64,000 nucleotides of DNA, taken from contig JAYUQS010000131.1 of NCBI GenBank assembly GCA_043756645.1, forward strand, positions 7,158-71,157, read 5' to 3'. Position 1 is the first letter of the stretch, and every line of letters starts with the position of its first letter. A program made the position numbers and the translations under genes. The notes under the pieces are model-generated. The model had not been told where the DNA came from and did not search any database. It worked only from the letters and a program-made list of their open reading frames with translations. The stretch is from Hyphomicrobiales bacterium. Lineage in GTDB: Bacteria > Pseudomonadota > Alphaproteobacteria > Rhizobiales > Aestuariivirgaceae. Shown piece after piece: positions 1 through 55,158 of the stretch.

Positions 1-328
1 TGCCGATGTAAACCTGAACGGGCCTGCCGCCGTGGTTTCCTTACCGACTTCGCAGTGGTAAGCTGGTGCCGCCGACCGTAAGACCACCACCTGGGCCGTG
101 GTTTCCTTACCGACTTCGCAGTGGTAAGCTGGCTTTTGCTTCGGCAACTACATCAACCACGCCGTGGTTTCCTTACCGACTTCGCAGTGGTAAGCTAAAA
201 CCCATGTGCCATGCCACGGCTACGGCGCCGTGGTTTCCTTACCGACTTCGCAGTGGTAAGCTTCCGAAAGTGTATTTCAATAAGCAAGTCGGGCCGTGGT
301 TTCCTTACCGACTTCGCAGTGGTAAGCT
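1..328 (+). CRISPR. Type II-C CRISPR array, leader/cas2-proximal end; continues beyond the left edge of the window
   Basis: Five identical 36-nt repeats GCCGTGGTTTCCTTACCGACTTCGCAGTGGTAAGCT at 29-64, 95-130, 161-196, 227-262 and 293-328. Unique 30-nt spacers at 65-94, 131-160, 197-226 and 263-292, plus a truncated spacer at 1-28. The + strand crRNA polarity is inferred from the tracrRNA anti-repeat and a TGnTAAGCT extended -10 at each repeat 3' end. Confidence 0.99.
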
Positions 329-384
329 CGCTCCCGTCCAAGACGCTGAAAACGTTAAAATATTCCCTCTTAATGGGAAGAGTT

Positions 385-723
385 TCAGAGCAGCACCAGC
401 TGATTTGTGGCCATTTTTTCACTCTTTTTTGATTCGCCAACGAGCATTTTCATGCGGGCGTATTGGCGTTCCGTGACCTGCAATGTGCGCACACTTCCCT
501 TGGCAGGCAAGCGTTTTGTGACGCGGCCAATATGTTTGTCCACTGCTTCCTCGCCCCGGCAGACGCGCGCATAAACTGAGAATTGCAGCATCATGTAGCC
601 ATCGTCTTTCAGGAAATTGCGAAAGCGGGTGGCGGTGCGGCGCTGGTCCTTGGTGCCAACGGGCAGATCGAAAAACACAAACACCCACATGTAACGCACC
701 TCACTGGCTTTCATCCCGCTCAC
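385..723 (-). CDS. cas2: CRISPR-associated endoribonuclease Cas2
   Basis: MWVFVFFDLP...FRNFLKDDGYMMLQFSVYAR Cas2 motifs; lies between cas1 and the array. Confidence 0.97.
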   Translation of the reverse strand: MSGMKASEVRYMWVFVFFDLPVGTKDQRRTATRFRNFLKDDGYMMLQFSVYARVCRGEEAVDKHIGRVTKRLPAKGSVRTLQVTERQYARMKMLVGESKKSEKMATNQLVLL

Positions 724-1607
724 TCCAAATGCGGTAACTCCAATAACAGCGGTGACGAACTTTCCATGGCCCGTACCAAAGACGCTGCCGCCCGTTCAGT
801 TGATATCAGTACACTGACGGTTTCAGCGCCGAACTTCACATCTTCATGCAAAATTCCGGCCAGTGCCCGGCGTTCCGAAATGACCAATTCACCAGATTTT
901 CGTGTGCCATTATCGGACAGCTTGAAAACCTTCGCATCGACCAGCGGGCGAAACGGCTCAAACAGATCATCAGCCAGATTGAAAGCATTTGCAGCGCTTT
1001 CATGAAACAATCCGAAGCAGGGCAACAAACCGGATGCAACAAGGGCGCGGGCGATGGCTGAGCGGATAATGGCATAGCCATAGTTTAGCATGGCGTTACG
1101 CAAATCAGTTTCATCGCTGCGGATGAAATCATCAAACAGGGTGGACCAATACTCCCGGGCAGCGCGGGCCTCGGTGTTTTCAGTGTCACCTGATGTGACA
1201 AATTTGGCGATTGCCGCAACCACTGTTCCGTCCCGACCACAAACGTCCAAACACGCAGCCTGATTTTCAATCTTGGCAATGACAAGAGATTGCCAAAGAC
1301 GCTTCTTCAATGGCAACGAAAGACCAATCTGCATCGCTGCCACCGCCGCTTGTCGATGATGGGTGTGGAAGGGAAGCGCTATGCCCGAAGGCGTGTGGCG
1401 TTCATCGGTAAAGATGATGGCCACGCCCATGTTCATACAAGCCGACACCAGTGACACGGAAAGTGTTGAATGATTGGAATCCAAAACAATCCAAGCCACA
1501 TCCTCCAGCGGCATGGCCACGTCACCCTCATCCTGCGCAACACAAAGCTGTTGGTCTTTATAACTCAGCCTTGCGGGTTTGGAGATATGCACACCTTTCC
1601 ACGCCAT
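720..1607 (-). CDS. cas1: Type II CRISPR-associated endonuclease Cas1
   Basis: 295 aa; EARAAREYW, NAMLNYGYAIIRS and LFHE..NAFNLADDLFEPFRP motifs; ATGA overlap with cas2. Confidence 0.97.
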   Translation of the reverse strand: MAWKGVHISKPARLSYKDQQLCVAQDEGDVAMPLEDVAWIVLDSNHSTLSVSLVSACMNMGVAIIFTDERHTPSGIALPFHTHHRQAAVAAMQIGLSLPLKKRLWQSLVIAKIENQAACLDVCGRDGTVVAAIAKFVTSGDTENTEARAAREYWSTLFDDFIRSDETDLRNAMLNYGYAIIRSAIARALVASGLLPCFGLFHESAANAFNLADDLFEPFRPLVDAKVFKLSDNGTRKSGELVISERRALAGILHEDVKFGAETVSVLISTERAAASLVRAMESSSPLLLELPHLE

Positions 1608-4600
1608 GTCCGCTCTTCGCTTTTGATTTCATTCAAACGACCTAGCCTGTCTACACTAAACTTTTTGATGGAATTCAAAGTTTTGCTCCCGACTTTCGAT
1701 GAGAACTCAAGATTGTTTTGGTGATAGGATACTCGCATTCCAGCGTCGTTTCTGTTCACATCTCTGAAGTATCCCGCGATGACTTCACCATCAGATTTCA
1801 CCATTTCAATGTAGGCCATTGGTTCGATGGGAAAGATGTATTCGTATGAGGAGTCCAATGAAGGCCACTCGTGTTCATCTTTATGTGCAAGCATAGCCTT
1901 TTTGGGCGGTAATTGGTCAGTTGCAATTTGGTGCGGGTAAACTGGAACCAAATAGTGGTTCCATTTTCCATTGGGCTTTTGTTTTCTGAACACATCCACC
2001 CGAGCCATGTCGCCCCGATCCACAGCACCCTTGCGTACAAATACTTCCGGCTTCCTTTTCGAAAGTAAAGCGACTTTCGAAATAGGATCACCTTTAGGTG
2101 ACAAGGGTGGTTTATCTCCAGGTTTACCCAGCAAAATCCAATTGTGAAGGGAGTCAATTACAGCGGCATTGCGCTCGGGGTCTTTGACATTTTCAAGATC
2201 TTTCTCCGTCAAATTTGACACTTGTTTGCGCTCAAAAACTTTGGCCTCACCGTTCACTTCGGAAATCGAACGGATTGTAGCATCATGTGCCTTTCCTCTC
2301 GCACGATGCCTCTCCGCACGTGAGACAAAAACACCCTCAACTTTCTTCATCACTTCATCCCTGAACCCCGGCCAAGGTTGGTCCAGTGCGCTGAAATCTC
2401 GCGGACTTCCAATTGCTTCCTGCTTTTGAAATGCCCGCGTTAAAACCTGCATCATGCCTTCAGTTGTCGCCGCAGTGATGACGGCATCCAGCGCATGGTG
2501 TCGATCATCGGGAATGCGTTGCCCTGTCTTTTCGTCCTTCTTCATCCACTGTACGCCCCAGCCACGCCGCAATCGATCTGTCAAAGCGCCCGGCCTCGTG
2601 AACACTTTGCGGTCTCGTTTGTCTTTTGGATAAAGCTGCTTCAAGCATTCCGCCAAAAGGCGGCAAGCCCAGCGGGTGTCATTCAAGTTTCGCGTTAGAA
2701 ATTTTCCCTCAACGCTTGCGGCATCCCTAATGGTATAGTTGCGACGTTTGTAGCCTTTGAGTGCGGGCAGGGCCTTTACGCGGGCTTCAAGCGCTTCCCA
2801 GTCAGTTTCGCTCTTGTCTTTGCTGAACCATTCAAAAGGTGTGCGCCCGCGCTTTTCCTGATTTGCCTTTGCTGTGCAAAGTGTTTTGTTGTTGAAGCTG
2901 TCATCGCCAAAGCGGCTCCAAGGCAGAATGTGATCGACCTGCACTGAATTGTCGGTTGCAACTACTTGGCTGGGGCTGATGTACTCATCGCTGTAGACAC
3001 ATTTTCCGTTTTGCTGCTTCCAAAGCTCAAAGCGCATAAGCTCATTGGCTGATGTGCAAGGTTGGCCAACCTTGTCTGCAAATTCCAAACGCAACTTGTC
3101 TTTTTCCTTGTTCCGCCTCTCAATGCCGTTTTCAATTTCACGACGTTCGTCAATACCTTTTCCAATGTCGCGGGCCAATTCGATGTGAATGGCGTCAGGG
3201 ATACCATGCACTTCAACAATGGCCTTCACCTGCTTGACGGCTTCTATCAGTGCTTTCCTGGCTGTGGGGCTGCCGACCGAGTGACGATTAATCCGTTCAC
3301 CGGAAAGAATTTTCTTCAAAGCTTCTTTGCCGTGAATACCAACATCGAAGGCATGACGCTCTCGGCTGTCGGTGTGATCATAGTTGCACTTCTTTGCGGC
3401 GTCAGAATAAACGAGGGTCTGCGCCAAATGCGGAATCATATTACGGCAAGCGAGTGATGATACATTCCCAGCGCCCGTGAATTTGATGAATGTATTTCCG
3501 TTTGTCGCATCCATGAGAGCTTCAATGACAACTGGCTCAAGTCCGATTTCATTCAAGCCGGAACGAATGTTTGTGAGGTCTGAGCGGAACGAAATAACCT
3601 CCGCAATGCGGTCCAGTTTTTCCGGTGTTTTGACGAGGGAATCCCAAGCTGCACCTTTGAGCAAGGTATGCAAGGTGCCGGCACCTTCTGCCGCGTTTCC
3701 GCTGCGTGCCACCGCATCAAGTTTTTCGTCTTCAAAGCGCACACTTGCAAAGCTTGCAGCATCCGAAAGTTTCCAGAGATTTCGGAGCGTGGTGTAAGAA
3801 ATCTTTTTTGTCGATCCGAAATTGCTTGTAGCTATTGCAAGTTCTTCGGCAGTAACGCGTCTCCGGTCGCGCCCTTCGCGGATTTCAAATGTGTTGAGCC
3901 GCGATAGAAAACGAAACAACTCAAATGAGTAACCGCGTTTTGATGTTCGCTTCTCCTTTGTTTCGAAAGCGCAGTTTGCCAATAGTTTTTCGCTATCTTG
4001 CAAACCGCGTTGGTGAAACGGTGCATTTTCTCGCGTTTCATCAAGATATTCGGCTTCCAGTTCGCGTGTCGCAAATTTTGAACCCAGTCGGCGTTGTGTG
4101 CTAAAGATTGCGCGGACTTCCGCGGCAAGGTCGGCACGTTGTGGGGTGCGGGAAAAGTCGCTTTCTTTATTACGTTTTCGGTCTGCAAAAGTGGGGTCAG
4201 TTGCAATCGTCTCGCCAAACGTGCGGCCTGCAAACTTTTCCTGTGTTTGCGCCATGGCCTTTTTCATTTTTGAACCTTCGACGTCATTTTCTCCTTGCGA
4301 TTTGGCATTGGATTTGAAGCCTCGATGACGGGCAATGTGTCCTAGTGCTATGGCCAGTTCTTTGGCGGTCAAAAGTTTCTGCGTCGCTTTGGCCCTTGCG
4401 TCCCAAGGATTGACGCCTTGAAATTTCAAAGCGTCTTGTTTCGCATCCGGCAACAAACCATGATGTTGCAAAAGTTTGCGCACACCATTCATACGTTGCC
4501 TCCTCCGCCGGATTATGCGCCGTTGCCCCCGGAATGTCCGCCTCGCTTCAGACTTGAGCTTTGGGCCGGATTGAGTTGCCTCTTCCGGCGAGTCAAACAT

Positions 4601-4708
4601 GCGGGTGCCGCAAGCGATGATTGATCCGGTCGTTTCCGCCGCATCATATTCCAACACCGCCCACCCAACACTCGCAATTCCGCAATCAAGTCCCAGAACC
4701 TTTGGCAT
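1565..4708 (-). CDS. cas9: Type II-C Cas9 (~1047 aa); catalytic motifs appear intact
   Basis: RuvC-I LGLDCGIASVGWA, Arg-rich bridge helix, RuvC-II IHIELAR, HNH VDHILPWSRFGDDSFNNKTLC, RuvC-III RHHALDA. No csn2 or cas4. Start placed at MPKVLG (4708) because the longer ORF-track start runs into the tracrRNA. Confidence 0.97.
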   Translation of the reverse strand: MPKVLGLDCGIASVGWAVLEYDAAETTGSIIACGTRMFDSPEEATQSGPKLKSEARRTFRGQRRIIRRRRQRMNGVRKLLQHHGLLPDAKQDALKFQGVNPWDARAKATQKLLTAKELAIALGHIARHRGFKSNAKSQGENDVEGSKMKKAMAQTQEKFAGRTFGETIATDPTFADRKRNKESDFSRTPQRADLAAEVRAIFSTQRRLGSKFATRELEAEYLDETRENAPFHQRGLQDSEKLLANCAFETKEKRTSKRGYSFELFRFLSRLNTFEIREGRDRRRVTAEELAIATSNFGSTKKISYTTLRNLWKLSDAASFASVRFEDEKLDAVARSGNAAEGAGTLHTLLKGAAWDSLVKTPEKLDRIAEVISFRSDLTNIRSGLNEIGLEPVVIEALMDATNGNTFIKFTGAGNVSSLACRNMIPHLAQTLVYSDAAKKCNYDHTDSRERHAFDVGIHGKEALKKILSGERINRHSVGSPTARKALIEAVKQVKAIVEVHGIPDAIHIELARDIGKGIDERREIENGIERRNKEKDKLRLEFADKVGQPCTSANELMRFELWKQQNGKCVYSDEYISPSQVVATDNSVQVDHILPWSRFGDDSFNNKTLCTAKANQEKRGRTPFEWFSKDKSETDWEALEARVKALPALKGYKRRNYTIRDAASVEGKFLTRNLNDTRWACRLLAECLKQLYPKDKRDRKVFTRPGALTDRLRRGWGVQWMKKDEKTGQRIPDDRHHALDAVITAATTEGMMQVLTRAFQKQEAIGSPRDFSALDQPWPGFRDEVMKKVEGVFVSRAERHRARGKAHDATIRSISEVNGEAKVFERKQVSNLTEKDLENVKDPERNAAVIDSLHNWILLGKPGDKPPLSPKGDPISKVALLSKRKPEVFVRKGAVDRGDMARVDVFRKQKPNGKWNHYLVPVYPHQIATDQLPPKKAMLAHKDEHEWPSLDSSYEYIFPIEPMAYIEMVKSDGEVIAGYFRDVNRNDAGMRVSYHQNNLEFSSKVGSKTLNSIKKFSVDRLGRLNEIKSEERTWRGKVCISPNPQG

Positions 4709-4736
4709 GGTTGTCCCTTTGCTGCTGTCACCACTC

Positions 4737-4765
4737 TTGACGCTAGCAATAAACATGCCTAGGTT
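4737..4765 (+). promoter_or_regulatory. Sigma70-like promoter for tracrRNA
   Basis: TTGACG (4737-4742), 17 bp spacer, TAGGTT (4760-4765). The predicted TSS near 4772 coincides with the start of the anti-repeat match. Confidence 0.65.
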
Positions 4766-4771
4766 GAAGAG

Positions 4772-4890
4772 GCGAAGTCGGAAGGGAAACCACGGCAAGG
4801 ATTTGAACCCTTGTGGTTCCTAATCTGAAGGATTACCCCTGTTCGGGAAACCGGGCAGGGGGATTCCCCCGCCGCTCACTCAATTCATCG
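4772..4890 (+). ncRNA. tracrRNA: tracrRNA (3' end approximate)
   Basis: 4772-4796 GCGAAGTCGGAAGGGAAACCACGGC matches the repeat reverse complement at 23/25. It is followed by a nexus-like AAGG and hairpins, e.g. CCCTGTTCGG-GAAA-CCGGGCAGGG. Confidence 0.9.
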
Positions 4891-7563: not shown

Positions 7564-7640
7564 GGCGGGGTAGCTCAGTTGGTTAGAGCACGGGAATCAT
7601 AATCCTGGGGTCGGGGGTTCAACTCCCTCTCCCGCTACCA
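7564..7640 (+). tRNA. tRNA-Met (CAT, elongator), prophage attachment target
   Basis: GGCGGGGTAGCTCAGTTGGTTAGAGC...GGGAATCATAATCCTG...GGTTCAACTCCC...CCCGCTACCA cloverleaf with encoded CCA. Confidence 0.95.
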
Positions 7641-9171
7641 TCAAGAACCCACCCGTGGGGGTGAAGCTGGGCAGGCCGATGAGTTGGTTCAGGCGGCCTT
7701 TGATTTCGAATTTATAATCCGGATGCACGGTGATGCTGGCGATGAGCCCGCGCAATTCGTCGGCTTCTGCTGTGCCGGTAGCGAGTTCGCTTTGCAGATT
7801 GTGGATCTGTGCGATGTAACGATTGAGTGCCGTGGGGTGCAACGTCACCACATCGGCTGAAGGCTTGGCCGCAAGCGTGGCTTTCAATTGCCGTTCCTCG
7901 GATTCCAATTCTTTCACGCGGGGGCTGTGGCGCTCGGGGTCGATCTGGCCTTTGATCATCATCGTGACTGTGCGCTCGATCTCGGACGTGACGGAGGCCA
8001 ATCGCTTTTCGTTGTTGGCCTTGGATGATGCGCGCGTGTTGCTCAAGCGTCGGCGCTCGGCATTGTATTCGCGCACATAAGCCTCGATCAATTGGGGGTG
8101 TTGCAATTCCTGCCGCAGCACATCCAGTACGGCCATGGTGATGCGGTCCAGCTGGTACACACGGTTGTTGCTGCACGCGCCCGATTCCTGAAAGCGCGAA
8201 CAGCGAATGCGCGTCACGCCATTTTTCCGGTCGCGCACCACCAGTGAGCCGCCACAGCAATGGCATTTGAGCAGGCCTGACAGCAGATGTTTTGGCGCAC
8301 GCATCGTGTGGCCGCGCGGATCATAGACCCGGCGCTTGGCGGCAACAGCGTTCCACACATCCTCGTCGATGATGCGTAAGTGCGGCACTTGCGTTGACTG
8401 CCATTCCGATGCTGGATTGGCGCGGCTGATGCGGCGGCCTGTGTCCGGGTGCTTGAACATCTTCACTTTATTCCACACCAGTTGGCCGCGATAAAGCGCG
8501 TTGCCGAGGATGCCGTTGCCACGGTCTTTGCGTCCCTGAATCGTTGATGCGTTCCATCGGGTGCCCATGATGGGGGTGATGTTGTTTTCATTAAGTATTG
8601 CGGCGATTTTTCTGGGTGAATCACCAGACGCATAACAGGTAAAAATGCGGCGCACCACGTCGGCTTCGTGTTCGACAATCACAAGTTGGCCAGCCTCGCC
8701 TTTGACGGGGCGGTAACCATAGGCGCGGCCTCCTGCTGATTTGCCTGCGCGGATATTGCCCGCCATACCCCTGTGGGTTTTGTCGGCAAGGTCGGCCAGA
8801 AACAAAGTGCCCATCAGCCCGCGCACGGCAGCATTGATGGGGGTGGCCTTGCCGCCGTGCACTTCGATGATGGTCACGCCATCGAAACTCAGGCGCTTAT
8901 AAAGTGTGGCCATGTCAGCCTGGTCGCGCGATAAACGGTCAAGCGATTCAACCACCAGTGTTTTGAAACGGCCTTCAGCGGCATCACGCAACAGGCGCTG
9001 CAAGCCCAACCGTTGCACGGTGGATGCGCCCGACATGGCGCGGTCTTCGTAAGCGGCCACAACGGTCAAGCCTTCGCGCTGTGCATAGGTTTTGCAAAGG
9101 GCGAGTTGGTCCTCAATCGAGCGTTCGCTCTGCAGGTCGGAGGAATAGCGGGTGTAAATGGCGGCGGTCAT
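7597..9171 (-). CDS. Large serine recombinase (integrase)
   Basis: AIYTRYSSDLQ...SIEDQ catalytic Ser motif, LDRLSR, recombinase domain and CHCCG...C Zn-ribbon; 3' end overlaps the tRNA antisense. Confidence 0.95.
   Translation of the reverse strand: MTAAIYTRYSSDLQSERSIEDQLALCKTYAQREGLTVVAAYEDRAMSGASTVQRLGLQRLLRDAAEGRFKTLVVESLDRLSRDQADMATLYKRLSFDGVTIIEVHGGKATPINAAVRGLMGTLFLADLADKTHRGMAGNIRAGKSAGGRAYGYRPVKGEAGQLVIVEHEADVVRRIFTCYASGDSPRKIAAILNENNITPIMGTRWNASTIQGRKDRGNGILGNALYRGQLVWNKVKMFKHPDTGRRISRANPASEWQSTQVPHLRIIDEDVWNAVAAKRRVYDPRGHTMRAPKHLLSGLLKCHCCGGSLVVRDRKNGVTRIRCSRFQESGACSNNRVYQLDRITMAVLDVLRQELQHPQLIEAYVREYNAERRRLSNTRASSKANNEKRLASVTSEIERTVTMMIKGQIDPERHSPRVKELESEERQLKATLAAKPSADVVTLHPTALNRYIAQIHNLQSELATGTAEADELRGLIASITVHPDYKFEIKGRLNQLIGLPSFTPTGGFLMVAGEGVEPPTPGL
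7620..7641 (+). repeat. attL core (22-bp direct repeat)
   Basis: CAACTCCCTCTCCCGCTACCAT, identical to 53720-53741. Confidence 0.95.
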
Positions 9172-10843: not shown

Positions 10844-11892
10844 TTCACCTCCGGCATTTGCTTGCAGGCCCAGAGTTCATCGCTGGCGCGACCGCGCATG
10901 CCAGATCGTGGGCCTGAATCTTGTTTGAAGAAAAATGCTGTGCCAGTTTCGCGGCACTGGCGCATGATGTCTTCAGCCGATTCCATCTGCATGGGTCGAT
11001 GGCCGTGACCGCTTTCGCCGCCAACGATGATCTGGTCGAGCGTAGGGTATGGAAATTCAAACTTAAACCCACAGTCGATCTTATATGAGCGATGGCTTCC
11101 GCAATTTGGGCACGAGGGTTCTTCCGCTTGGTCGTCCGATCCACATTCTCGACATGTCATCAACAAAAAACCATCTGGTGATTCGAAGGCTTTCTCGCAA
11201 CCGCAATTGGAGCAACCACTAGGCCCTTGATCGTTTACTCCGCCGTGAAACCCGCAATCTGCGCACGTCCATGGTTCAAGCCATTTCTCTAGGTTCAATG
11301 GCAACAACAAAGGTTCTGCACTCACAAATCTCACCGCTGCCGGTGTGGCCAGCAGGTCGGGGATGCGCTCATCGGCGCGGGTCTGGTCTTCGCAGCTGAC
11401 ACCGAGGTGGACGTTCGACAGTGGCAGTACGATTGGCGGCAAGAAATCAATGTGTGAGCAATACTCCCGCATCCGCTTGCTGCGCTTCGTCAGGATTTGA
11501 AACGTGTGCTGCGGGCACAGCGCCATCACGGCGAACACCTTGTCGATCACCTCATCCGGCACGGATTCGTGGAACAAATCCGACATCGAGTTCACGAAAA
11601 TCCGGCGCGGCTTTTTCCATTTCAGCGGTGCCAGCAAAGTGCTTTCGGGTGCCACCTTCACCACGCCTGTCCAGTGAACAGGCTTTCTATTGTAGGGGCC
11701 ACGGCTCGTTGTACCTCTATAGTGATCAAGGTGAAAGTTGCCGCTGCCGTCTGGCTTTGACGCCATGCTTTCCAATCGTTCCGCCATCTTCATGGCGTAG
11801 CAATTGGTGCAGCCGGGTGAGATGATGGTGCAGCCCACAGTCGGATTCCACGTCGCATCGGCCCATTCGATTTTTGTGTTGTCGCCCATCAC
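10840..11892 (-). CDS. Phage Gp37/Gp68 (DUF5131) family protein with a Cys-rich insert
   Basis: TKIEWADATWNP..GCTIISPGCTNCYA, IFVNSMSDLF, HTFQILTKR, RFVSAEPLL and IIVGGESG motifs. Confidence 0.9.
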   Translation of the reverse strand: MMGDNTKIEWADATWNPTVGCTIISPGCTNCYAMKMAERLESMASKPDGSGNFHLDHYRGTTSRGPYNRKPVHWTGVVKVAPESTLLAPLKWKKPRRIFVNSMSDLFHESVPDEVIDKVFAVMALCPQHTFQILTKRSKRMREYCSHIDFLPPIVLPLSNVHLGVSCEDQTRADERIPDLLATPAAVRFVSAEPLLLPLNLEKWLEPWTCADCGFHGGVNDQGPSGCSNCGCEKAFESPDGFLLMTCRECGSDDQAEEPSCPNCGSHRSYKIDCGFKFEFPYPTLDQIIVGGESGHGHRPMQMESAEDIMRQCRETGTAFFFKQDSGPRSGMRGRASDELWACKQMPEVK

Positions 11893-18258: not shown

Positions 18259-19026
18259 TCAACCGAGAACCCATGACGCTGTCAAGGCCACCGCCACCAC
18301 GCGGCCTTTTTCGTCGTCGCCGTTGAGCAGAATAATTGTTTCGTGTTGCGGGTTGTCGCTTTCGGGCTGCAGTTCCACGCGGTCACGGAACACGCGCAGG
18401 CGCTTGATGGTGCGTTCGCGTTCATGGCCGCCATTGCGTAAAGCTTCCACCACCACAATCTGGCCGTCTGTGGTCTCACGGTGGCGGCGTTCCCATTCTG
18501 AAATCTCGACGGCCAGCACATGCATGCCCTCAAAAATGCGGGCTTTGTTCATGCTGTCGCCCGCCACCAGAAAGGCAAACTGCATCTCGAAGGGGTAACG
18601 CGGATCAGGGGCCACCGGCACGCGCTTGAACTCACCGTCCTGATTCATGGTGTCTACCACGCGCCATGATCCGGCATCAACAATGCCGCCGAATTTGACG
18701 CCGAATGGCTTTCTAGCTGGGATAGGGGGATGTCCCGGCTGGTGTCCGAGCGGAGGTGTTGGCCCGGCTTTCAGTTGCGACAGCGTGGCGTTGATTGTGC
18801 CTGTGGCCCCCATGTCGTCGGTTGATCCCAGCAACCATGATTCGCTCACTTCCAATGTTCGTGCCAGTTTCAAAATGTTTTCGCCGCGTGGCGATGCGGA
18901 TTTTCCGGTGCGGATGTTGCGAATGAACTGCGAATTGCCAACCGCAAGCATAGAAGCCTGACGTTCTGTAAGGCCTATTTCATCAAGCCGCTGTTTGATC
19001 CTGTTGTAAAGCTGGGTGTTTTCCAT
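18259..19026 (-). CDS. cI: CI-like repressor (HTH plus S24 autopeptidase)
   Basis: N-terminal HTH; FLVAGDSM Ser and RERTIKRL Lys catalytic motifs; divergent from a cro-like gene. Confidence 0.9.
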   Translation of the reverse strand: MENTQLYNRIKQRLDEIGLTERQASMLAVGNSQFIRNIRTGKSASPRGENILKLARTLEVSESWLLGSTDDMGATGTINATLSQLKAGPTPPLGHQPGHPPIPARKPFGVKFGGIVDAGSWRVVDTMNQDGEFKRVPVAPDPRYPFEMQFAFLVAGDSMNKARIFEGMHVLAVEISEWERRHRETTDGQIVVVEALRNGGHERERTIKRLRVFRDRVELQPESDNPQHETIILLNGDDEKGRVVAVALTASWVLG

Positions 19027-19106
19027 GGGTAAAATATAACCCTGAACAGCTTTTGTTGCGCCTTGATAAAAATATTCTTGACTGTGAGTTATTTCTAACC
19101 CACATT
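19025..19106. promoter_or_regulatory. OR region: PRM/PR with operators
   Basis: ATGGGTAA-N4-TAACCCTG (19025-19044) and GTGAGTTA-N4-TAACCCAC (19084-19103). The second fills the spacer of PR: TTGACT 19078-19083, CACATT 19101-19106. Confidence 0.75.
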
Positions 19107-19113
19107 GCGGCGC

Positions 19114-19392
19114 ATGAACTACCGTCAACATCTGATCACCCTCATCGAAACCTTTGCAACGGCCAAGGGCATTTCACCCTCGCGTGTCGGCCAAACCTTG
19201 TTTTCCAGCGGTGCCAAATACGCACAATTGGTGGCTGGCGCTGACATCAACGTCGGTCGCTTTGAGGATGCTGTGAAATATCTCGACGCCCATTGGCCCG
19301 CTGATGCGGTGTGGCCTGAGGGTTTGCCGCGCCCATCACTGATCGCCGATGCCAAATCACTCGGCACCCCTGAAACCGTGGAGGCTGCATAA
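19114..19392 (+). CDS. cro: Cro-like regulator
   Basis: Small HTH-like protein divergent from cI, ending WPADAVWPEGLPRP, typical of alphaproteobacterial phage Cro-like proteins. Confidence 0.75.
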   Translation: MNYRQHLITLIETFATAKGISPSRVGQTLFSSGAKYAQLVAGADINVGRFEDAVKYLDAHWPADAVWPEGLPRPSLIADAKSLGTPETVEAA

Positions 19393-22904: not shown

Positions 22905-23176
22905 TGCAAGCTCCTACCCGTGAAACCTCGTTTGAGATGATCATCAGCAACCCGCTGTTCAAGCGCGGTTATGAACATGGCTGGTCGGGCGAGGAACCCA
23001 TGAACGACCGGGGTTGGATGCCGCATGAAGAAGAGGCTTACGAACGCGGTCGCCAATTCGCCGCCTGGCTGATCGGTGAACGCGAACAGCGCGTGGCGCT
23101 GACACGCGGATATCTGGTGCACCCACGGGCGGAAACCCTGTTGATGCGCGCGATGCATCTGGGCGAGGTGCGGTGA
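22904..23176 (+). CDS. Hypothetical phage protein (gene A of the duplicated block)
   Basis: 90 aa; its 3' third is repeated at 23830-23933. Confidence 0.65.
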   Translation: MQAPTRETSFEMIISNPLFKRGYEHGWSGEEPMNDRGWMPHEEEAYERGRQFAAWLIGEREQRVALTRGYLVHPRAETLLMRAMHLGEVR

Positions 23177-23520
23177 TGAAGGTGACTACCGAAAAACAGT
23201 TGTCGGCGCATGATGTGTTGAAGATGCGTTCTGACAGTCAGCGGGCGGTTTTGGATGCGATGCATTTTGTGCGAGCGCGTCACAATATTTCCGGTGCGTC
23301 TGTGCATTTGTTGTTTCTCTCGCAAATAGTGAATGTTTTCCAGTTGGTTAACCCGTTGGCAACGCAGGAGTTGTTGCGGTGCATGGTGGAAATTCACGCA
23401 GTGCGAGAAAACAAAGACGCGCTCGATACCGTCATTTTAGAATTCGACGCGGTCCAACGCTGGATGTTGCAGTCCTTCGACCTGTTTTATGCACAGCCTG
23501 AAAACGGGGGGCATGCATGA
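23173..23520 (+). CDS. Hypothetical phage protein, allele B1
   Basis: Ends FDLFYAQPENGGHA; paralog of 23927-24274. Confidence 0.7.
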   Translation: MMKVTTEKQLSAHDVLKMRSDSQRAVLDAMHFVRARHNISGASVHLLFLSQIVNVFQLVNPLATQELLRCMVEIHAVRENKDALDTVILEFDAVQRWMLQSFDLFYAQPENGGHA

Positions 23521-23930
23521 CCTTCGACCCCGCTATGGATGATTGGGTGAACCGTGCCCGCGCCGCTGATATCTGGTCGGTGCTGGACCGTTTGCCTGTA
23601 CCGCATACGCTGAAGCTGCGCGGCCACAAGACGGTGGGGCCTTGCCCGGCCTGTGGCGGGCATGACCGCTTCTCGATGGACCGGCGCAAGGGCATTTTCT
23701 TTTGCCGCCGCTCGGCCACCGGGGGCGATGCCATTGCCCTTGTGCAATATCTGACGGGGGCGGATTTCTTCGGTGCTGTTGAAACCATCACCGGCGAGGC
23801 ACCGCCACGCGGTGAACACGGTATTAAAAGTGAATGCGAACAGCGCGTGGCGCTGACACGCGGATATCTGGTGCACCCACGGGCGGAAACCCTGTTGATG
23901 CGCGCGATGCATCTGGGCGAGGTGCGGTGA
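23517..23930 (+). pseudogene. Chimeric ORF: primase Zn-finger N-terminus fused in frame to the gene-A C-terminus
   Basis: MTFDPAMD...GPCPACGGHDRF...PPRGEHGIK followed by EQRVALTRGYLVHPRAETLLMRAMHLGEVR; produced by the duplication junction near 23829. Confidence 0.75.
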
Positions 23931-24274
23931 TGAGGGTTTTGACAGAAAAGGATCTCGGCGCTGACGCTGTTGAGGCATTGAACAAAGAGTGTGTCGATAT
24001 TCTGCTGTCCGCCATGCGGCACATGCAAAGGCGTCACGATGTCAGTGTGCCGTCTGCTCATTTGATGTTCATTTCACGACTGATCGGGTTTGTGCAGTCG
24101 ATTGATCCGGTGTCAACCGACGCCATGTTGCGGGCTTTCACGGCCATTCATGCGGCATCTGAAGATCTGGTGGAACGTGAAGCGGCCAATGCTGAACTCG
24201 GCAAAGCGCAAGACAAACTGTTGCTGGCCTTCGACCTGTTTTATGCGCGGCCTGAAAACGGGGGGCATGCGTGA
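23927..24274 (+). CDS. Hypothetical phage protein, allele B2
   Basis: Ends FDLFYARPENGGHA; same length as B1 but strongly diverged internally. Confidence 0.7.
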   Translation: MMRVLTEKDLGADAVEALNKECVDILLSAMRHMQRRHDVSVPSAHLMFISRLIGFVQSIDPVSTDAMLRAFTAIHAASEDLVEREAANAELGKAQDKLLLAFDLFYARPENGGHA

Positions 24275-25473
24275 GTTTTGATCCCGCCATGGATGAGTGG
24301 GTGAACCGCGCCCGCACCGCTGATATCTGGTCGGTGCTGGAGCGTTTGCCGGTGTCACACGCACTTAAACTGCGCGGCCAGAAAACCGTGGGGCCTTGCC
24401 CGTCTTGTGGCGGTAAGGATCGCTTCTCGATGGACCGGCGCAAGGGCATTTTCTATTGCCGCCGCTCGGACAAGGGCGGCGATGTGATTGCGCTTGTGCA
24501 ATATCTGATGGGGGCTGATTTTCTCGGTGCCGTCGAAACCATCACCGGCGAAGCACCGCCACGCGGTGAACACGGTATCAAACAGGATCGCGCCCTCATC
24601 GAACAGCGCCGCCTGGAACGTCTGGTCGACCAGCAGCGCCGTGATGCTGGGGCTGTGGATTATCGCCAACGCGAAATCGACAAGGCTGCCAAAATCTGGC
24701 GTGAGTCCTTGCCGCTCACAGGTTCGCCGGCTGAATCATATTTGGCATTGCGTGGGTTGGTGGCTCCTGCGGGTGCGCGGCTGCGCTGCCATCCCGCATT
24801 GAAATTCTGGCATTGGAGTGAAGCTGAAAAGCAATTCCGCGTGCTGCATGTGGGGCCCGCCATGGTGGCGCGGATGGATGACAATGCCAACCGTTTTTGC
24901 GGGGCGCATTGCACGTATATCGATTTGTCAAAGCCCAAAGGCAAAGCCGAAATCGTCGATCCTGAAAGCGGTGAAGTGTTGGCTGCCAAAAAGATGCGGG
25001 GGTCTAAAAAGGGTTGTCACATTCACCTCAGCGGCGATCCTGCAACGGCCACGGCGCTCAAGATCGGTGAGGGCAATGAAACCGTGTTGTCAGTGCATAA
25101 TGAAATGCTGCTGGCGGGCAGGGATATTTCAAAGCAGTTGTTCTGGACCTCATGTGACCTTGGCAACCTCGGTGGGCCGGGCGTGGCAACCGTCAAACAC
25201 CCGACTTTGACCCGCACCGATATCAAGGGCCGTGTGCGGGCTTTGAAGGTGCCGGGCCCCGATCCGGCTTGGCCTCAAGGTGAGGGGATATTGATGCCGC
25301 CTGATAATGTCCGCCACATCACCATTCTGGGCGACGGTGACAGCGACCGTTTCTCAACCGAACAACATGTGAAACGCGCAGGCTCCCGTTGGGCCAAACC
25401 GGATCGTGTCATCGCAGCCGCCTGGGCCCCGGTGGGCCTTGATTTCAACAATCTGAAAATGGGGCAAGCGTGA
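24271..25473 (+). CDS. DNA primase (Zn-finger plus Toprim)
   Basis: GPCPSCGGKDRF Zn finger; KIGEGNET and ILGDGD Toprim motifs. Confidence 0.85.
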   Translation: MSFDPAMDEWVNRARTADIWSVLERLPVSHALKLRGQKTVGPCPSCGGKDRFSMDRRKGIFYCRRSDKGGDVIALVQYLMGADFLGAVETITGEAPPRGEHGIKQDRALIEQRRLERLVDQQRRDAGAVDYRQREIDKAAKIWRESLPLTGSPAESYLALRGLVAPAGARLRCHPALKFWHWSEAEKQFRVLHVGPAMVARMDDNANRFCGAHCTYIDLSKPKGKAEIVDPESGEVLAAKKMRGSKKGCHIHLSGDPATATALKIGEGNETVLSVHNEMLLAGRDISKQLFWTSCDLGNLGGPGVATVKHPTLTRTDIKGRVRALKVPGPDPAWPQGEGILMPPDNVRHITILGDGDSDRFSTEQHVKRAGSRWAKPDRVIAAAWAPVGLDFNNLKMGQA

Positions 25474-27254
25474 CTGGCGACACCCCAAACCCCATTCTCG
25501 ATGCACTTGATCAGGCGCAGCCAGTCAATGCTGAACCCTCCGCACCTCCGCACCATCACGAGGACATCGAAGACCCGGGCGAACAGGAAGCGCCATCCGA
25601 TATCAATTGGGATTTGCTGCGGCTTTGTGTCAATGAATTGCAAAACGATATCGGCAATTCATGGCGGCTGCGGCATCGCTTTGGTGGTAATTTAATCCAC
25701 ATTCAAAACGTCGGTTTTTTCGCCTGGGATGGAAAACGTTGGGCTGAAGACACCGATCTCCGGCAAGCAAAACCCATGTGCCATGCCACGGCTACGGCCA
25801 TCGCGCTTGAGGCGATTTTGATTGTGCCGTCGGACAAGGAAAGTGCGGCAATCGAATTGGGCGAAGCTGCGGCCGCCGCCGTGCAAGATGCGCACAAGCG
25901 CATGCGCGAATTGGCGTTGCAGGATTTAAAACCGAAAGACCGGAAACAGCGGGCCGACGAAATCCGCATGGAGATTGATGCGGCACGCGATGAAATTGCC
26001 GATGGCCGCAAAGCGCAAGCCGCTGTGCAGGCACGCCGCGCCAATCGCCGTCGCTTCTCCATCTCATCGGGCAATGCCGGAAAGCTGAACGGCATGCTCG
26101 ACCAGGCGCTACCCTATTTGTCACGCCCCATTCTCGACATGGACGTTGATGCTTATGCCCTCAATGTCGGCAATGGGACGCTGCGCTTTACCGAGCGGGC
26201 TGATATTGCCGGGCGGTGGCAGGTTGATGTGAAACCCCATGCCCCCACCGACATGATCACCAAACTGGCGGATGTGGACTATAACCCGCAAGCCAAGGCT
26301 CCGGTGTTTCATAAATTCCTGAGTGAGGTTTTGCCCAACGAAAACGTGCGGGGCTTCCTGCAGCGGTATTTTGGCTATAGCCTGACAGCGCTGACCTCGG
26401 AACAGGTGTTTGCCATTTTGCATGGAGAGGGGCGCAACGGCAAATCCACGCTGGTCGATATTATGGCCAAAATCTTGTCGGATTATTCAACCTCGATTCC
26501 CATCGCCACACTGGTCAACGACAATCGTGCGGGCAAGGGCAGTGAGGCCACGCCGGATCTGGCGCGATTGCCCGGTGCACGTCTGGTGCGCTCGGCCGAA
26601 CCGCGTGAGGGCTTGTCATTCGATGAGAGTCTGATCAAGGGTTTGATTTCGGGTGAGCCTTTGCCGGTGCGGCGCTTGAACCAAGATTTCATTGATATTT
26701 ACCCCACCTTCAAATTGATCATTTCCGTCAATCGCAAGCCCACCATCAAGGGCAATGACGATGGCATCTGGCGGCGGGTGCGGCTGGTGCCGTTTGAGAT
26801 ACAGGTCGAGGTGGGCAAGGAAGACAAAAGCCTGCCGGAAAAGCTGTGGGATGAACGCTCCGGCATTCTGAATTGGATGATTGAGGGGGCGCTTGATTAT
26901 TTCGAGCGCGGCGGCCTCGATGCGCCGGAAGCGGTGTTGATGGCAACGCAGGAATATCGTGACGAAAGCGATCTGGTGGGCAGCTTCGTGCGCGCCGCCC
27001 TCGACATCACCAACGAGAGTTACGACCAAATGGAAACGGGAGCGCTTTACAACGCCTTCATTGCCTATGCCAAGCGGCAAGGTGTGCCCCTGATGAGCGG
27101 CACCACCTTTGCCCGCCGCATGCCAAGGACCGCCAGCCAATTCGGCATCCTCAAGGGAAAGTCATCACTCACGGTTTATTCCGGCATCAAACTGCGGCCA
27201 GAGTTCGAGATGCATCACGCGTCGCCCTCACACACCCACGAGGATGAGCGATGA
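25470..27254 (+). CDS. P4-family phage primase/helicase (D5-like SF3 helicase); contains the CRISPR protospacer
   Basis: HGEGRNGKST Walker A, PDLARLPGARLV, GIWRRVRLVPF. Confidence 0.92.
   Translation: MTGDTPNPILDALDQAQPVNAEPSAPPHHHEDIEDPGEQEAPSDINWDLLRLCVNELQNDIGNSWRLRHRFGGNLIHIQNVGFFAWDGKRWAEDTDLRQAKPMCHATATAIALEAILIVPSDKESAAIELGEAAAAAVQDAHKRMRELALQDLKPKDRKQRADEIRMEIDAARDEIADGRKAQAAVQARRANRRRFSISSGNAGKLNGMLDQALPYLSRPILDMDVDAYALNVGNGTLRFTERADIAGRWQVDVKPHAPTDMITKLADVDYNPQAKAPVFHKFLSEVLPNENVRGFLQRYFGYSLTALTSEQVFAILHGEGRNGKSTLVDIMAKILSDYSTSIPIATLVNDNRAGKGSEATPDLARLPGARLVRSAEPREGLSFDESLIKGLISGEPLPVRRLNQDFIDIYPTFKLIISVNRKPTIKGNDDGIWRRVRLVPFEIQVEVGKEDKSLPEKLWDERSGILNWMIEGALDYFERGGLDAPEAVLMATQEYRDESDLVGSFVRAALDITNESYDQMETGALYNAFIAYAKRQGVPLMSGTTFARRMPRTASQFGILKGKSSLTVYSGIKLRPEFEMHHASPSHTHEDER
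25769..25798 (+). other. Protospacer of spacer 197-226
   Basis: AAAACCCATGTGCCATGCCACGGCTACGGC, 30/30 identical; 3' flank CATCGCGC. Confidence 0.99.
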
Positions 27255-34607: not shown

Positions 34608-35882
34608 ATGGCTAACCCTCGTGGCACATTCGCACCTGAATTACTGCCCGAAGGCTGGTTTGACGAAACATTAAAACCAGAAGGTTGGTTCAGCCAAGAC
34701 TTTTTAGAGCCCGCATCAGGCGGCCCTGCTGAAGTTACCGGCACATTAAGTGTTTCGCTTGGTGCTCTGGTGGTTGCGGCGTCCGGGGTGCGCGGTGTTG
34801 CTGGTGTTGTGGCTGCCAGTTTGGCGGCGCTGCAATCCACTGCGTCCGGAAGCCATGGTGTGGCGGGCACTGAAGATGCAACGCTGGCACCACTTGTTGC
34901 AGCGTTCTCTGGTGTGCGCGGCACGGCTGGCACCATCACTGCAACGCTGGCACCGATGCTGGCCAGTTTTGCTGGCGCACAACTGCATTCAGGATCAGTG
35001 AATGGCGTCATCGCCGCACTGCAAGCCAGCTTGGCGGGTGTGCGCGGTGTGACGGGAAGCGTGAGCGCATCGCTTGCGGCGCTGCAATCCGCTGAATCGG
35101 GTAGCCATGGTGTGGCGGGATCGGAATCATCCACGCTTGCGGCTTTGGCTGCGGTGATGACTGGCAGCCATGGTGTTGCGGGTTCGGCTGCCGCTGCTCT
35201 GGCACCGCTTGCCGCCAGCCTTGATGGTGAATTTGAAGACGCCACTGTGACAGGCGGTATCGCCGGAACGATATCGGCCTTGCAGGTGAGTGTTGCGGGC
35301 GTGTTGGGCGTGGCGGGCTCGGTCTCGGCCAGCCTGGGCGCTTTGCAATCCGGCGTTTCCGGTGGGCAGGGCGTTGTTGGTTTTGAAACGGCAACGCTTG
35401 CCGCACTGATGGTTTCGCTCAGCGGTGACCATGGTATTGCCGGTGATCTGGTGGCCACATTGTCGGCACTGGTGGCTGATGTTGCGGCTGACCACGGTGT
35501 TGCTGGTGATGACGCGGCGGTGCTGCCGTCGCTGGTTTCAAATCTCTACGGCGTTGTTGGGGTTGCAGGGGTTATTGGTGCAACGCTTGCCCCGCTGGCC
35601 GTCAATCTGCAGGGCGCTGAAATTCCGGCACCAGTTGAAGTGGTCACAGGTTCGCGCCGCCGCCGTGGGCAATGGAGCGTTCAAGGTTTGAACACGGTTG
35701 CCGTCAAGGCGTTGCCGGTGACGGGTGAGGTTGCTGCAACGCTGCCCAGTTTGGTGGCGTCGGTAACGCTCGATCATGATCCGCTCGATGTGGTGGAGCT
35801 GGTGGTGATGCTGGATGCCGCGCAGCGCCGCCGCAAGATTCCGGTGTTTGCCGGATATGAATACCCCGCGAAAGCGGCCTGA
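34608..35882 (+). CDS. Ala/Gly-rich repeat protein (424 aa), putative head fibre
   Basis: ~21-aa tandem repeats LAALxxxxxGSHGVAG. Confidence 0.65.
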   Translation: MANPRGTFAPELLPEGWFDETLKPEGWFSQDFLEPASGGPAEVTGTLSVSLGALVVAASGVRGVAGVVAASLAALQSTASGSHGVAGTEDATLAPLVAAFSGVRGTAGTITATLAPMLASFAGAQLHSGSVNGVIAALQASLAGVRGVTGSVSASLAALQSAESGSHGVAGSESSTLAALAAVMTGSHGVAGSAAAALAPLAASLDGEFEDATVTGGIAGTISALQVSVAGVLGVAGSVSASLGALQSGVSGGQGVVGFETATLAALMVSLSGDHGIAGDLVATLSALVADVAADHGVAGDDAAVLPSLVSNLYGVVGVAGVIGATLAPLAVNLQGAEIPAPVEVVTGSRRRRGQWSVQGLNTVAVKALPVTGEVAATLPSLVASVTLDHDPLDVVELVVMLDAAQRRRKIPVFAGYEYPAKAA

Positions 35883-53678: not shown

Positions 53679-53719
53679 TTACGCCACCTTACCGATTAGA
53701 ACGAAGGTGGGGGCTTGAC

Positions 53720-53741
53720 CAACTCCCTCTCCCGCTACCAT
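53720..53741 (+). repeat. attR core (tRNA-Met 3' fragment)
   Basis: Identical to 7620-7641. Confidence 0.95.
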
Positions 53742-53746
53742 TTCTT

Positions 53747-55039
53747 CTAAACAATGCCGGAAGACGAACCTGCTATGGCAGGGCGTTCGCTGGTTTTCGC
53801 CGCACGATAACCTGAGGCGCGGTAGCAGCTCCACGGGTGCAGGGCACCACCTTTGCGTTTGCGGGCCTCGCACATGATAGAGGTGACGTCGGAATTAAAT
53901 GCGGTTTTGAGCAGGCGGTGCGCACCCATGACATCGCCGCTGTTTTGCAGGTCAGTGAGCTTGGCGCGATCGATGATGAGCGCCTTGGCATAAGCCCTTG
54001 TGATTTCCATTGCAGAGCCCATCAGACTCTCAATTGGGTCAGTGACGTTGTGGGATTGGTCAATCATGTAAGCGGGATTAAAGCCTGGGGCTTTGCGGTG
54101 TTCGGCATCGACCAATTCGTTGAACACAAGGAACAGTCGGAAGGGATCAACCGAACCTGAGTCCAAATCATCATCGCCATATTTCGAGTCATTGAAATGG
54201 AAGCCCGCGAGTTTTTTCGCATGAACAAGCCGTGCTACAATTTGTTCAATATTGGTGTTGGGCGCATGGTGGCCCAAGTCCACGAGGCATTTGGCTTTTT
54301 CGCCCAGCTCTTGGGCGGCCATAAGGCTTGATCCCCAATCAGATATGACTGTTGAGTAAAACGCAGGCTCATACATTTTGTGTTCGAGGAATACGTCCAT
54401 GTTTTTGGGCAGTGCGTCGTAAATGGTGCGCAAGCTATCGAGGTAATGATCGAATACTTTGGTGAGGTTTGATTGTCCGGGGAAATTGGAGCCATCTGCT
54501 ATCCAAACTGTCAAAGCGTTGGAACCCAATTGCTTGCCAATTTCGATACATTCAATGTTGTGTGCGACCGCCTGTTCACGCGTGGCTTTGTCCGCATGAG
54601 TAAGGGAGCCGAATTTATAGGACAGCTTTTGATTGGCCTGATCTTGGAAGGTGTTGGAATTCACCGCGTCAAAGCCCAATTCATATTGCGACGCTTCCTG
54701 CTTCAATGCGCGATAGTCAGACACCTTGTCCCACGGAAAATGCGGGGAGACATTGGGTGTATGACGCGTGAGTTGGTTGATCACACCGCAGTCTTCCAAC
54801 TTGTCATGAATATTGCGTGGTTCACCGGGCCCCGGGAAGCGGGCAAAACGTGTGCCACCGGTGCCAACACCCCAAGTGGGTACGGCCACGGCATAATCCA
54901 TGACCTTGGTGGTTATGGTTTCAATGTTGATGCCACTGCGCTCCAACTGGCGGGCAAGGTGCGCATAGTCCTCATCATGTGCCGCTTGCGACTTGGCATT
55001 GTGGTTGGCGATGAAGTCGGAGGAGATCGAAAAAGTCAT
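53747..55039 (-). CDS. rhaI: L-rhamnose catabolism isomerase
   Basis: PTWGVGTGGTRFARF, EHKMYEP, DLGHH and HFNDSKYGDDDL motifs. Confidence 0.93.
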   Translation of the reverse strand: MTFSISSDFIANHNAKSQAAHDEDYAHLARQLERSGINIETITTKVMDYAVAVPTWGVGTGGTRFARFPGPGEPRNIHDKLEDCGVINQLTRHTPNVSPHFPWDKVSDYRALKQEASQYELGFDAVNSNTFQDQANQKLSYKFGSLTHADKATREQAVAHNIECIEIGKQLGSNALTVWIADGSNFPGQSNLTKVFDHYLDSLRTIYDALPKNMDVFLEHKMYEPAFYSTVISDWGSSLMAAQELGEKAKCLVDLGHHAPNTNIEQIVARLVHAKKLAGFHFNDSKYGDDDLDSGSVDPFRLFLVFNELVDAEHRKAPGFNPAYMIDQSHNVTDPIESLMGSAMEITRAYAKALIIDRAKLTDLQNSGDVMGAHRLLKTAFNSDVTSIMCEARKRKGGALHPWSCYRASGYRAAKTSERPAIAGSSSGIV

Positions 55040-55062
55040 GGCATATCTTTCCGGGGCAAGTG

Positions 55063-55158
55063 CCCCACCCCTGCCCCTCCCCATAGAATGGAGACGGGTG
55101 AGGCGTTGTGGGCTGTTTCTCACCCCTCTCCGCTATGCGGGGAGGGGCAGGGGTGGGG
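55063..55158. repeat. Intergenic REP-like palindrome
   Basis: 20-bp perfect inverted repeat CCCCACCCCTGCCCCTCCCC (55063-55082 / 55139-55158). Confidence 0.75.

Follow-up and report, generated by a model that had tools for sequence, protein, structure and literature searches.

Integration at tRNA-Met exchanges the C-terminus of a prophage serine integrase and may remove an SsrA-like degron

In a 64,000-nt stretch of DNA from a Hyphomicrobiales bacterium (contig JAYUQS010000131.1), called the window below, a tailed prophage is inserted at a tRNA-Met gene, and its phage attachment site (attP) falls within the 3' end of its own large serine integrase gene (int). Because of this location of attP, recombination exchanges everything downstream of the attachment core, and the prophage and the excised circle encode integrases with different C-termini. 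The reconstructed reading frames confirm that this integration-dependent swap is real. We also propose, with a probability of about 0.5, that the tail carried by the free form of the enzyme ends in a degron resembling the host SsrA tag and that integration removes this degron.

The prophage isoform of the integrase is a protein of 524 aa encoded on the minus strand at 7597-9171. By its domain content the protein is a large serine recombinase (LSR), with Pfam matches to Resolvase (PF00239, 4.6e-23, residues 3-143), Recombinase (PF07508, 2.3e-21) and Zn_ribbon_recom (PF13408, 9.4e-12). The catalytic S10, together with R8 in the segment YTRYSSDLQ, is nearly invariant across the family alignment, and the zinc-ribbon residues C303, C306, C324 and C333 are invariant. 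Long helices were predicted across residues 341-476 in both of the AlphaFold models discussed below. For the model of a close relative, the best structural matches were the cryo-electron microscopy complexes of full-length LSRs with att sites (E 1e-18).

The integrase open reading frame (ORF) reads through a 22-bp repeated core into the antisense strand of the tRNA gene. The minus strand of the core reads ATG GTA GCG GGA GAG GGA GTT G, which is translated as MVAGEGV with the first base of the next codon left over. The prophage form of the ORF then terminates as ...GGFLMVAGEGVEPPTPGL, i.e. ...MVAGEGV-EPPTPGL. The codons found only in the prophage form, (E)PPTPGL with a TGA stop, are situated at 7597-7619 on the minus strand and are antisense to the T-stem, variable loop and anticodon arm of the tRNA. 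U33-C34-A35 of the tRNA, read on the opposite strand, supply the stop codon itself (7599-7597), and U36-A37-A38 supply the Leu codon before it; in this frame a stop can be placed here only by a tRNA with an anticodon starting with CA or UA.

We reconstructed the circle by joining position 53719 to the core. This produced a 530-aa ORF ending with ...MVAGEGVGQAPTFVLIGKVA and a TAA stop at 53681-53679, so that the terminus after the core reads MVAGEGV-GQAPTFVLIGKVA. The stored free-phage codons, (G)QAPTFVLIGKVA with the TAA, are located at 53679-53719 on the minus strand, and they rejoin int only in the excised circle. Integration exchanges 13 phage-encoded codons for 7 tRNA-antisense codons. A first-pass annotation of this DNA had placed the core inside a serine integrase gene, had read MVAGEGV from its minus strand, and had described both the EPPTPGL tail borrowed from the tRNA and the alternative tail running from 53719 to the stop at 53681-53679. 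All these statements held when the codons, the domains and the reconstructed ORF were inspected directly.

The repeat CAACTCCCTCTCCCGCTACCAT has exactly two copies in the window, at 7620-7641 (attL) and at 53720-53741 (attR), while the number of chance copies in shuffled sequence was 0.00, even with 3 mismatches allowed. The first copy consists of the final 21 nt of a tRNA-Met(CAU) gene plus one base. This gene, predicted by ARAGORN at 7564-7640 on the plus strand, is the single tRNA gene of the window; it comprises attB plus the 3' end regenerated on the attL side, and the attR copy is the displaced 3' end of the tRNA.

The region delimited by the two copies, 7620-53741 (46.1 kb), was identified as a complete tailed prophage from PHROG matches and from its guanine-cytosine content, which is 57% compared to 51% in the flanks on either side. 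The PHROG matches include a transcriptional repressor, a CII-like activator, a primase/helicase, a large terminase, a portal, a head protease-capsid fusion, a tape measure, tail proteins and an endolysin. To the right of the prophage are host genes of rhamnose catabolism. An empty site in a genome of the same genus (G007:C42, locus L008) supports these boundaries: its sequence aligns with the joined flanks over 2-800 (E 7.5e-107), passing from the CCA end of the tRNA directly to the rhamnose-isomerase side. The T-loop of the window tRNA-Met (7617-7623), at the left edge of the att core, reads TTCAACT vs TTCGAGT in this empty-site relative.

In many other genomes of the genus (G001, G004, G008, G016 and others) the left flank with tRNA-Met and the right flank with rhamnose isomerase were found on separate contigs. 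This pattern suggests that tRNA-Met is often occupied by other elements, or else that assemblies break there. While the phage is integrated, its orphaned tail constitutes a mini-ORF of 20 codons, MVAGEGVGQAPTFVLIGKVA (53679-53741, minus strand). Its ATG is the complement of the tRNA end and comes 5 nt after the point where the minus-strand rhamnose-isomerase ORF (53747-55123) terminates. Given this spacing, the mini-ORF could be translated by coupling to the rhamnose-isomerase ORF.

The whole attP, ~50 bp, is contained in the 3' end of the int ORF, where the P' arm encodes TGGFL, the core MVAGEGV and the P arm GQAPT. On the int strand the order of the reconstructed site is ...GGGTGGGTTCTTG-ATGGTAGCGGGAGAGGGAGTTG-GTCAAGCCCCCACC..., and the core is positioned between arms that form an inverted repeat with 11 of 13 matching bases, GGTGGGTTCTTGA ... 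TCAAGCCCCCACC. In the window, the P' arm TCAAGAACCCACC is at 7641-7653, inside the int ORF, where it encodes ...TGGFL; the P arm GGTGGGGGCTTGA is at 53706-53718, and its minus strand encodes part of GQAPT.

For location of the dyad centre, only positions 9-26 from a candidate centre were scored. The best centre in the window attP was ...TGGTAGCGG(G/A)|AG or GG, and of 14 related sites scored from free phages, 10 shared it. From this dyad symmetry the crossover dinucleotide is predicted at 7629-7630, CT on the plus strand and AG on the int strand, and it is non-palindromic, as serine integrases require. The attP half-sites are predicted to be ~25 bp long, as measured from the same centre. Measured from the centre, the G5 run of the P arm is 4 bp more distant than its counterpart in attB, the G5 run of the tRNA T-stem. 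An offset of this kind between the outer motifs of attP and attB has been described for LI integrase.

Free-form (non-tRNA) integrase tails also occur in nature, as can be seen in sequenced relatives. In three loci (L017, L018 and L019) int was flanked by early genes and by lysis/tail genes, had no tRNA in its vicinity, and ended with ...SPTFLLRAAA, ...PPLFFLEVAA and ...SPMFVIKAAG, respectively. For the cultured Rhizobium phage RR1-A, the genome record places int in mid-genome, with the ending ...SPQIILGRFVA; the integrase of phage Mae-JY30 ends with ...PPFRFGVIAA. The closest relatives of the window integrase (66-70% identity) end with GQYPTFWLAGRAA, GQAPLFWLAGVA, GQSPTFILRGLAA and GQEPTFRLFGKAA; the window phage has GQAPTFVLIGKVA. 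One of them, L187, has the tail GQSPTFILRGLAA and a core that matches the window core at 21 of 22 bases. In L185 a homolog of the endolysin (57% over 125 aa, E 3e-36) was found ~1.3-1.7 kb beyond int on the opposite strand, an arrangement that reproduces the left-end/right-end synteny of the reconstructed window circle.

These observations bear on the concern that the repeat might not be the site of this integrase at all, being instead the product of another recombinase or part of a fixed remnant prophage, in which case the circular isoform would never be made. In favour of this explanation, a spacer of the host Cas9 system matches the prophage perfectly, and excision in the window strain is a prediction from the reconstructed circle. 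Against it, the serine integrase is the sole integrase identified in the element (whose ORFs were annotated in part), all the phage modules are intact, and the att dyad architecture is the same as in free-phage relatives. Moreover, the attP observed in a relative matches the window reconstruction and the same int/tRNA-Met junction recurs across dozens of species. We consider this explanation very improbable. A search for a tyrosine integrase at the opposite end found none; lysis genes and a small operon with a helix-turn-helix protein occupy the right end.

To find how common this gene design is, we inspected the C-terminal ends of the best 120 of 1908 integrase homologs and fetched two sets of loci, 80 out of roughly 577 genome loci, from a collection with one genome per species, and 80 from IMG/VR viral contigs. 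Among those best 120 homologs, most end with VVA[GE]EG[LFV]EPPT[PQRH]GL. A tRNA-Met(CAT) gene was antisense to the 3' end of int in 56 of the 80 genome loci, and in 52 of these 56 the int/tRNA overlap was an identical 44 nt, with the same tail as in the window. The hosts belong to Mesorhizobium, Bradyrhizobium, Methylocystis, Rhodobacterales and many other Alphaproteobacteria. In the viral set, 17 loci had a called tRNA-Met and 39 more had a tail of the tRNA type; for 33 of these 39 the contig ended less than 40 nt from the int stop, and in the other 6 a tRNA was not called despite at least 40 nt of flank. One genome locus (L109) overlaps tRNA-Phe(GAA) instead of tRNA-Met.

This comparison shows that integrase genes spanning their attP are the rule in a large family of alphaproteobacterial phages targeting tRNA-Met, and the design is common to hundreds of related phages. 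The first-pass annotation had treated the swap as a one-off, a view that the count of 56 out of 80 overturns. There is also a sub-clade (L071, L113 and L169) where the 3' end of tRNA-Met is read in another frame, with an overlap of 22 nt and with tails ...GSGRGT or ...GGERGS that stop within the T-loop. Since the same tRNA end can be read in either frame, the peptide encoded by the tRNA is arbitrary.

In some relatives (L017 at 11500-11647, L111, L112, L116, L140 and L165) the tail was seen to contain a degenerate second copy of the core and P arm, as in ...VTGNGRPPTRFEGGGPVVAGGRLNRSPTF... and in the Bradyrhizobium/Mesorhizobium pattern ...MVAGDRYSPKPTFEDSGSRMVAGEGLEPPTPGL. Such second copies look like fossil att sites accumulated at the C-terminus of the integrase.

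The free-form tails were analysed in a set of 68 distinct non-tRNA sequences, or 70 after RR1-A and Mae-JY30 had been added. Among the 68 tails, 20 end with -AA and 5 with -VA, while in crude ORFs of the window genome the respective background frequencies are 3.8% and 0.7%. The enrichment of terminal Ala-Ala/Val-Ala is ~8-fold over background; for the -AA excess the binomial p-value is 6e-13, a significance that is inflated by the relatedness of the sequences. The share of Ala reaches 43% at position -1 and 40% at -2, vs 3-16% at positions -3 to -15. A hydrophobic pattern is conserved as well, with F at -7 and L/I/F at -5. The -AA and -VA endings (27 of the 70 tails) are spread over 13 of the 31 clusters made at 60% identity, and the integrase cores of the proteins with these endings are 39-87% identical, with a median of 49%. 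In the sub-clade with the other reading frame, where the core is read as GSGG..., 7 of the 8 free-form tails end with -AA. The terminal Ala residues are coded by GCA, GCC, GCG and GCT, all of which are used, and all three stop codons occur.

The pattern of substitutions points in the same direction. For pairs of the window phage, L187 and L185, the numbers of synonymous and nonsynonymous changes in the 13 tail codons were 5/5, 7/4 and 3/4, compared to 1/8, 1/9 and 2/7 in the 11 codons of the linker immediately upstream. Common to the closest relatives is the pattern GQxPTFxLxGxxA, in which the conserved residues show synonymous changes. The first-pass annotation had asked for conservation of the attP tail in related phages; within the family, the -KVA of the window phage is a minority ending.

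As to a constraint at the DNA level, the P-arm sequence CCCCCAC explains the P-T residues but neither the hydrophobic stretch nor the terminus, and we rejected it as the reason for the conserved tail. The distance from the stop codon to the dyad centre is 46-63 nt in the 10 relatives sharing this centre (mostly 46-57 nt) and 51 nt in the window phage, so with a half-site of ~25 bp the terminal codons lie beyond the attP half-site. A DNA constraint fails for the terminal residues for this reason and because all four Ala codons are used. As shown by these comparisons, the free-form tail is selected as protein, with a hydrophobic F-x-L stretch followed most often by Ala-Ala or Val-Ala.

One could still argue that the swap is a neutral by-product of genome compaction, in which attP overlaps a dispensable 3' end of int and neither tail matters. 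Disorder is predicted for both the linker and the tRNA-encoded tail, different sub-clades use two different frames of the tRNA, so that the prophage tail is arbitrary, and many free-form tails lack both -AA and -VA; a trivial explanation was also considered for dsiB, a comparable gene, by McMurdie et al. (PMC3146451). Neutrality would leave unaccounted for, however, the ~8-fold excess of Ala-Ala/Val-Ala among integrases that are only 39-87% identical, the use of all four Ala codons, the far larger amount of synonymous change in the tail than in the adjacent linker, and the position of the terminal codons outside the attP half-site. With this evidence of selection, neutrality of the tail swap is disfavoured and, in our judgement, unlikely.

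The tag added by the host transfer-messenger RNA (SsrA) is ANDNYAPVAVAA, ending with -AVAA, and the terminus of the free-form integrase would mimic it. If so, integrase made from infecting or excised phage DNA would be a substrate of a ClpXP-type protease and short-lived. Integration would delete the degron signal, and the integrase made by the prophage would persist, ready to act in excision along with a directionality factor. Once the phage had excised, the degron would return and limit re-integration. The first-pass annotation had suggested that the -KVA tail may be a degron, giving the integrase a different stability before and after integration; the counts of terminal residues, the codon and substitution patterns and the -AVAA of the host tag lend this suggestion comparative support. 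We find such a role of the tail plausible, judging from its sequence, and prefer it as the mechanism because the terminal Ala-Ala pair comprises the two most conserved positions, copies the host tag and is unpaired in the structural model. Engineered SsrA variants ending with -LVA are efficiently degraded in E. coli. By analogy with this behaviour the -VA tails, including the -KVA of the window phage, would be compatible with the degron idea.

Several observations weigh against the degron. The window phage itself ends with -KVA and not with -AA. Neither -AA nor -VA is present in ~60% of the non-tRNA tails, or in ~40% of those with verified free-phage context. The tail sequences are related, so the binomial p-value overstates their independence, and the P-arm DNA (CCCCCAC) offers another explanation for the PT(F) part of the motif. 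Finally, the AlphaFold model of a free-form relative (P0004, 531 aa) has a beta-strand at 523-529 (TFILRGL) with a predicted local distance difference test score (pLDDT) of ~75, while the whole tail of the prophage form is below 50.

The strand raises the question of whether the free-form tail serves the enzyme as a structural or regulatory element. It might dock on the zinc ribbon near the base of the coiled coil and tune DNA binding, synapsis or dependence on the directionality factor, so that the two isoforms would differ in activity or directionality. In the P0004 model the strand follows a disordered linker (501-520, pLDDT <50) and the last two Ala residues are unpaired; in the model of the window prophage isoform the chain is disordered from 499 to the end (524), with pLDDT ~31-36. 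As the predicted strand is confined to the free-form tail, a structural role could explain the conservation of the tail with no proteolysis involved. The conserved F at -7 and L/I/F at -5, and the synonymous excess along the entire tail, fit this explanation. Further, LSR directionality factors act at the zinc domain and the coiled-coil base, as described in PMC5814800, and the Mx8 integrase's C-terminal region, as cited in PMC4383910 from Tojo et al. 1996, is altered by integration. McMurdie et al. suggested that dsiB is maybe fully functional only on the circle (PMC3146451). A structural role would leave unexplained why the last two, unpaired, residues are the most conserved and copy the SsrA terminus, and it depends on two models that were built from differing alignments. 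It is a strong rival to the degron and does not exclude it; taken as the explanation in itself, we hold it to be doubtful.

The degron and the strand can be combined in a broader interpretation, which we offer tentatively. Integrases of this family may sense their own integration state through the structure of the gene. The enzyme made from the circle would have a selected beta-strand and an SsrA-like Ala-Ala, and would be short-lived and/or competent for integration; recombination would then replace this tail with a disordered one read from the tRNA and yield an enzyme that is stable and/or differently regulated. Were this true, attP would have part of the directionality and timing hard-wired in it.

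Large serine integrases are leading tools of genome engineering, and their temporal and directional limits are actively studied. Such limits on integrase activity are usually ascribed only to separate directionality factors. If the degron reading is true, a built-in switch would be a new layer of control, with the reaction rewriting the C-terminus of its own enzyme. An SsrA-like end would apparently be exchanged for an inert one, a compact natural design for self-limiting integrases. Genome annotation of such integrases records only the prophage isoform.

Other features of the window were observed as well. In the early/replication region of the prophage there is a 754-bp tandem duplication (23076-24518) with flanks that are 86-94% identical. 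Repeat units of 63 bp encoding G-S-H-G-V-A-G motifs were found at 34824-35600 and 49138-49444; these units are common to two tail or fibre-like ORFs (34608-35882 and 47709-50126). A type II-C locus of clustered regularly interspaced short palindromic repeats (CRISPR) and Cas genes is present at 1-4798, ~7 kb from the prophage. It includes Cas9 (1565-4798, minus strand), with HNH and RuvC_III domains, and Cas1 (720-1607, minus strand). The CRISPR array has at least 11 repeats with 66-bp periodicity and extends upstream of the window. A 30-nt spacer at 197-226 matches the primase/helicase gene of the prophage at 25769-25798 in 30 of 30 bases.

With respect to the target, according to a database paper of 2014 no serine recombinase was known to use tRNA genes as its target (PMC4383910). 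Against this reference statement, tRNA genes are a routine target of the large serine-integrase family described here. A survey of Paracoccus published in 2019 reported an active phage, Pami6, with a serine recombinase at tRNA-Met and did not comment on a gene overlap (PMC6536676). Our literature searches turned up no account of a serine-integrase family that is specific to tRNA-Met and has an SsrA-like end on its free form. Likewise, the design of a gene spanning attP in serine integrases at tRNA genes was not found described, apart from a remark on DsiB and the table entry for Pami6. Partial precedents for the swap are known, namely Mx8 IntP/IntX, DsiB of Dehalococcoides and the degron swaps of mycobacteriophages.

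DsiB, from the ssrA islands of Dehalococcoides, is also a large serine recombinase; its gene always overlaps attL at the 3' end and reads the antisense of the target RNA (PMC3146451). McMurdie et al. noted in 2011 that the dsiB stop codon depends on the integration state and offered functional speculation (PMC3146451). Unlike the window system, DsiB targets the transfer-messenger RNA gene, is carried by non-phage islands with a second small recombinase, DsiA, and comes from a different phylum; a conserved free-form tail or degron-like terminus was not reported for it, and that portion of the protein was found to be divergent (PMC3146451).

Integrases extending across attP have been described for Mx8 and SSV, both of which are tyrosine recombinases (PMC4383910). 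In the case of Mx8 IntP/IntX, as cited there from Tojo et al. 1996, the attP core is likewise inside the int ORF and the prophage integrase has a different C-terminus. Mx8 Int differs in being a tyrosine recombinase and in its att architecture, while the window integrase has serine recombinase domains only. The window integrase, to judge by its sequence, works like the Mx8 IntP/IntX type and is no member of it. We know of no SsrA-like terminus described for Mx8 Int.

In mycobacteriophages of the BPs type, the repressor loses a C-terminal degradation tag upon integration, and the C-terminal tags of both Int and Rep respond to ClpXP-type proteases (PMC3694055). The first-pass annotation had invoked this precedent, and correctly. 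BPs and Brujita thus resemble the window phage in that integration changes the C-terminus of a phage protein and strips a proteolytic tag (PMC3694055), which in the window is a putative one. They differ in that their attP is in the repressor gene and the integrase is of the tyrosine type with an unswapped tag, while in the window it is the serine integrase that changes. The window ORF with the PHROG match to a transcriptional repressor (18259-19131) is intact and situated ~10 kb from the core, which sets it apart from BPs-type immunity.

The integrases of phiC31, Bxb1, A118/LI and SPbeta (SprA) have the same domain order as the window integrase, a zinc ribbon with a coiled-coil insertion and short dyad att sites. 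To our knowledge, in these canonical phage LSRs attP is outside the int ORF and tRNA genes are not targeted. In these systems, as in the window with its predicted centre, the outer motif of attP is separated from the centre by a few bp more than that of attB.

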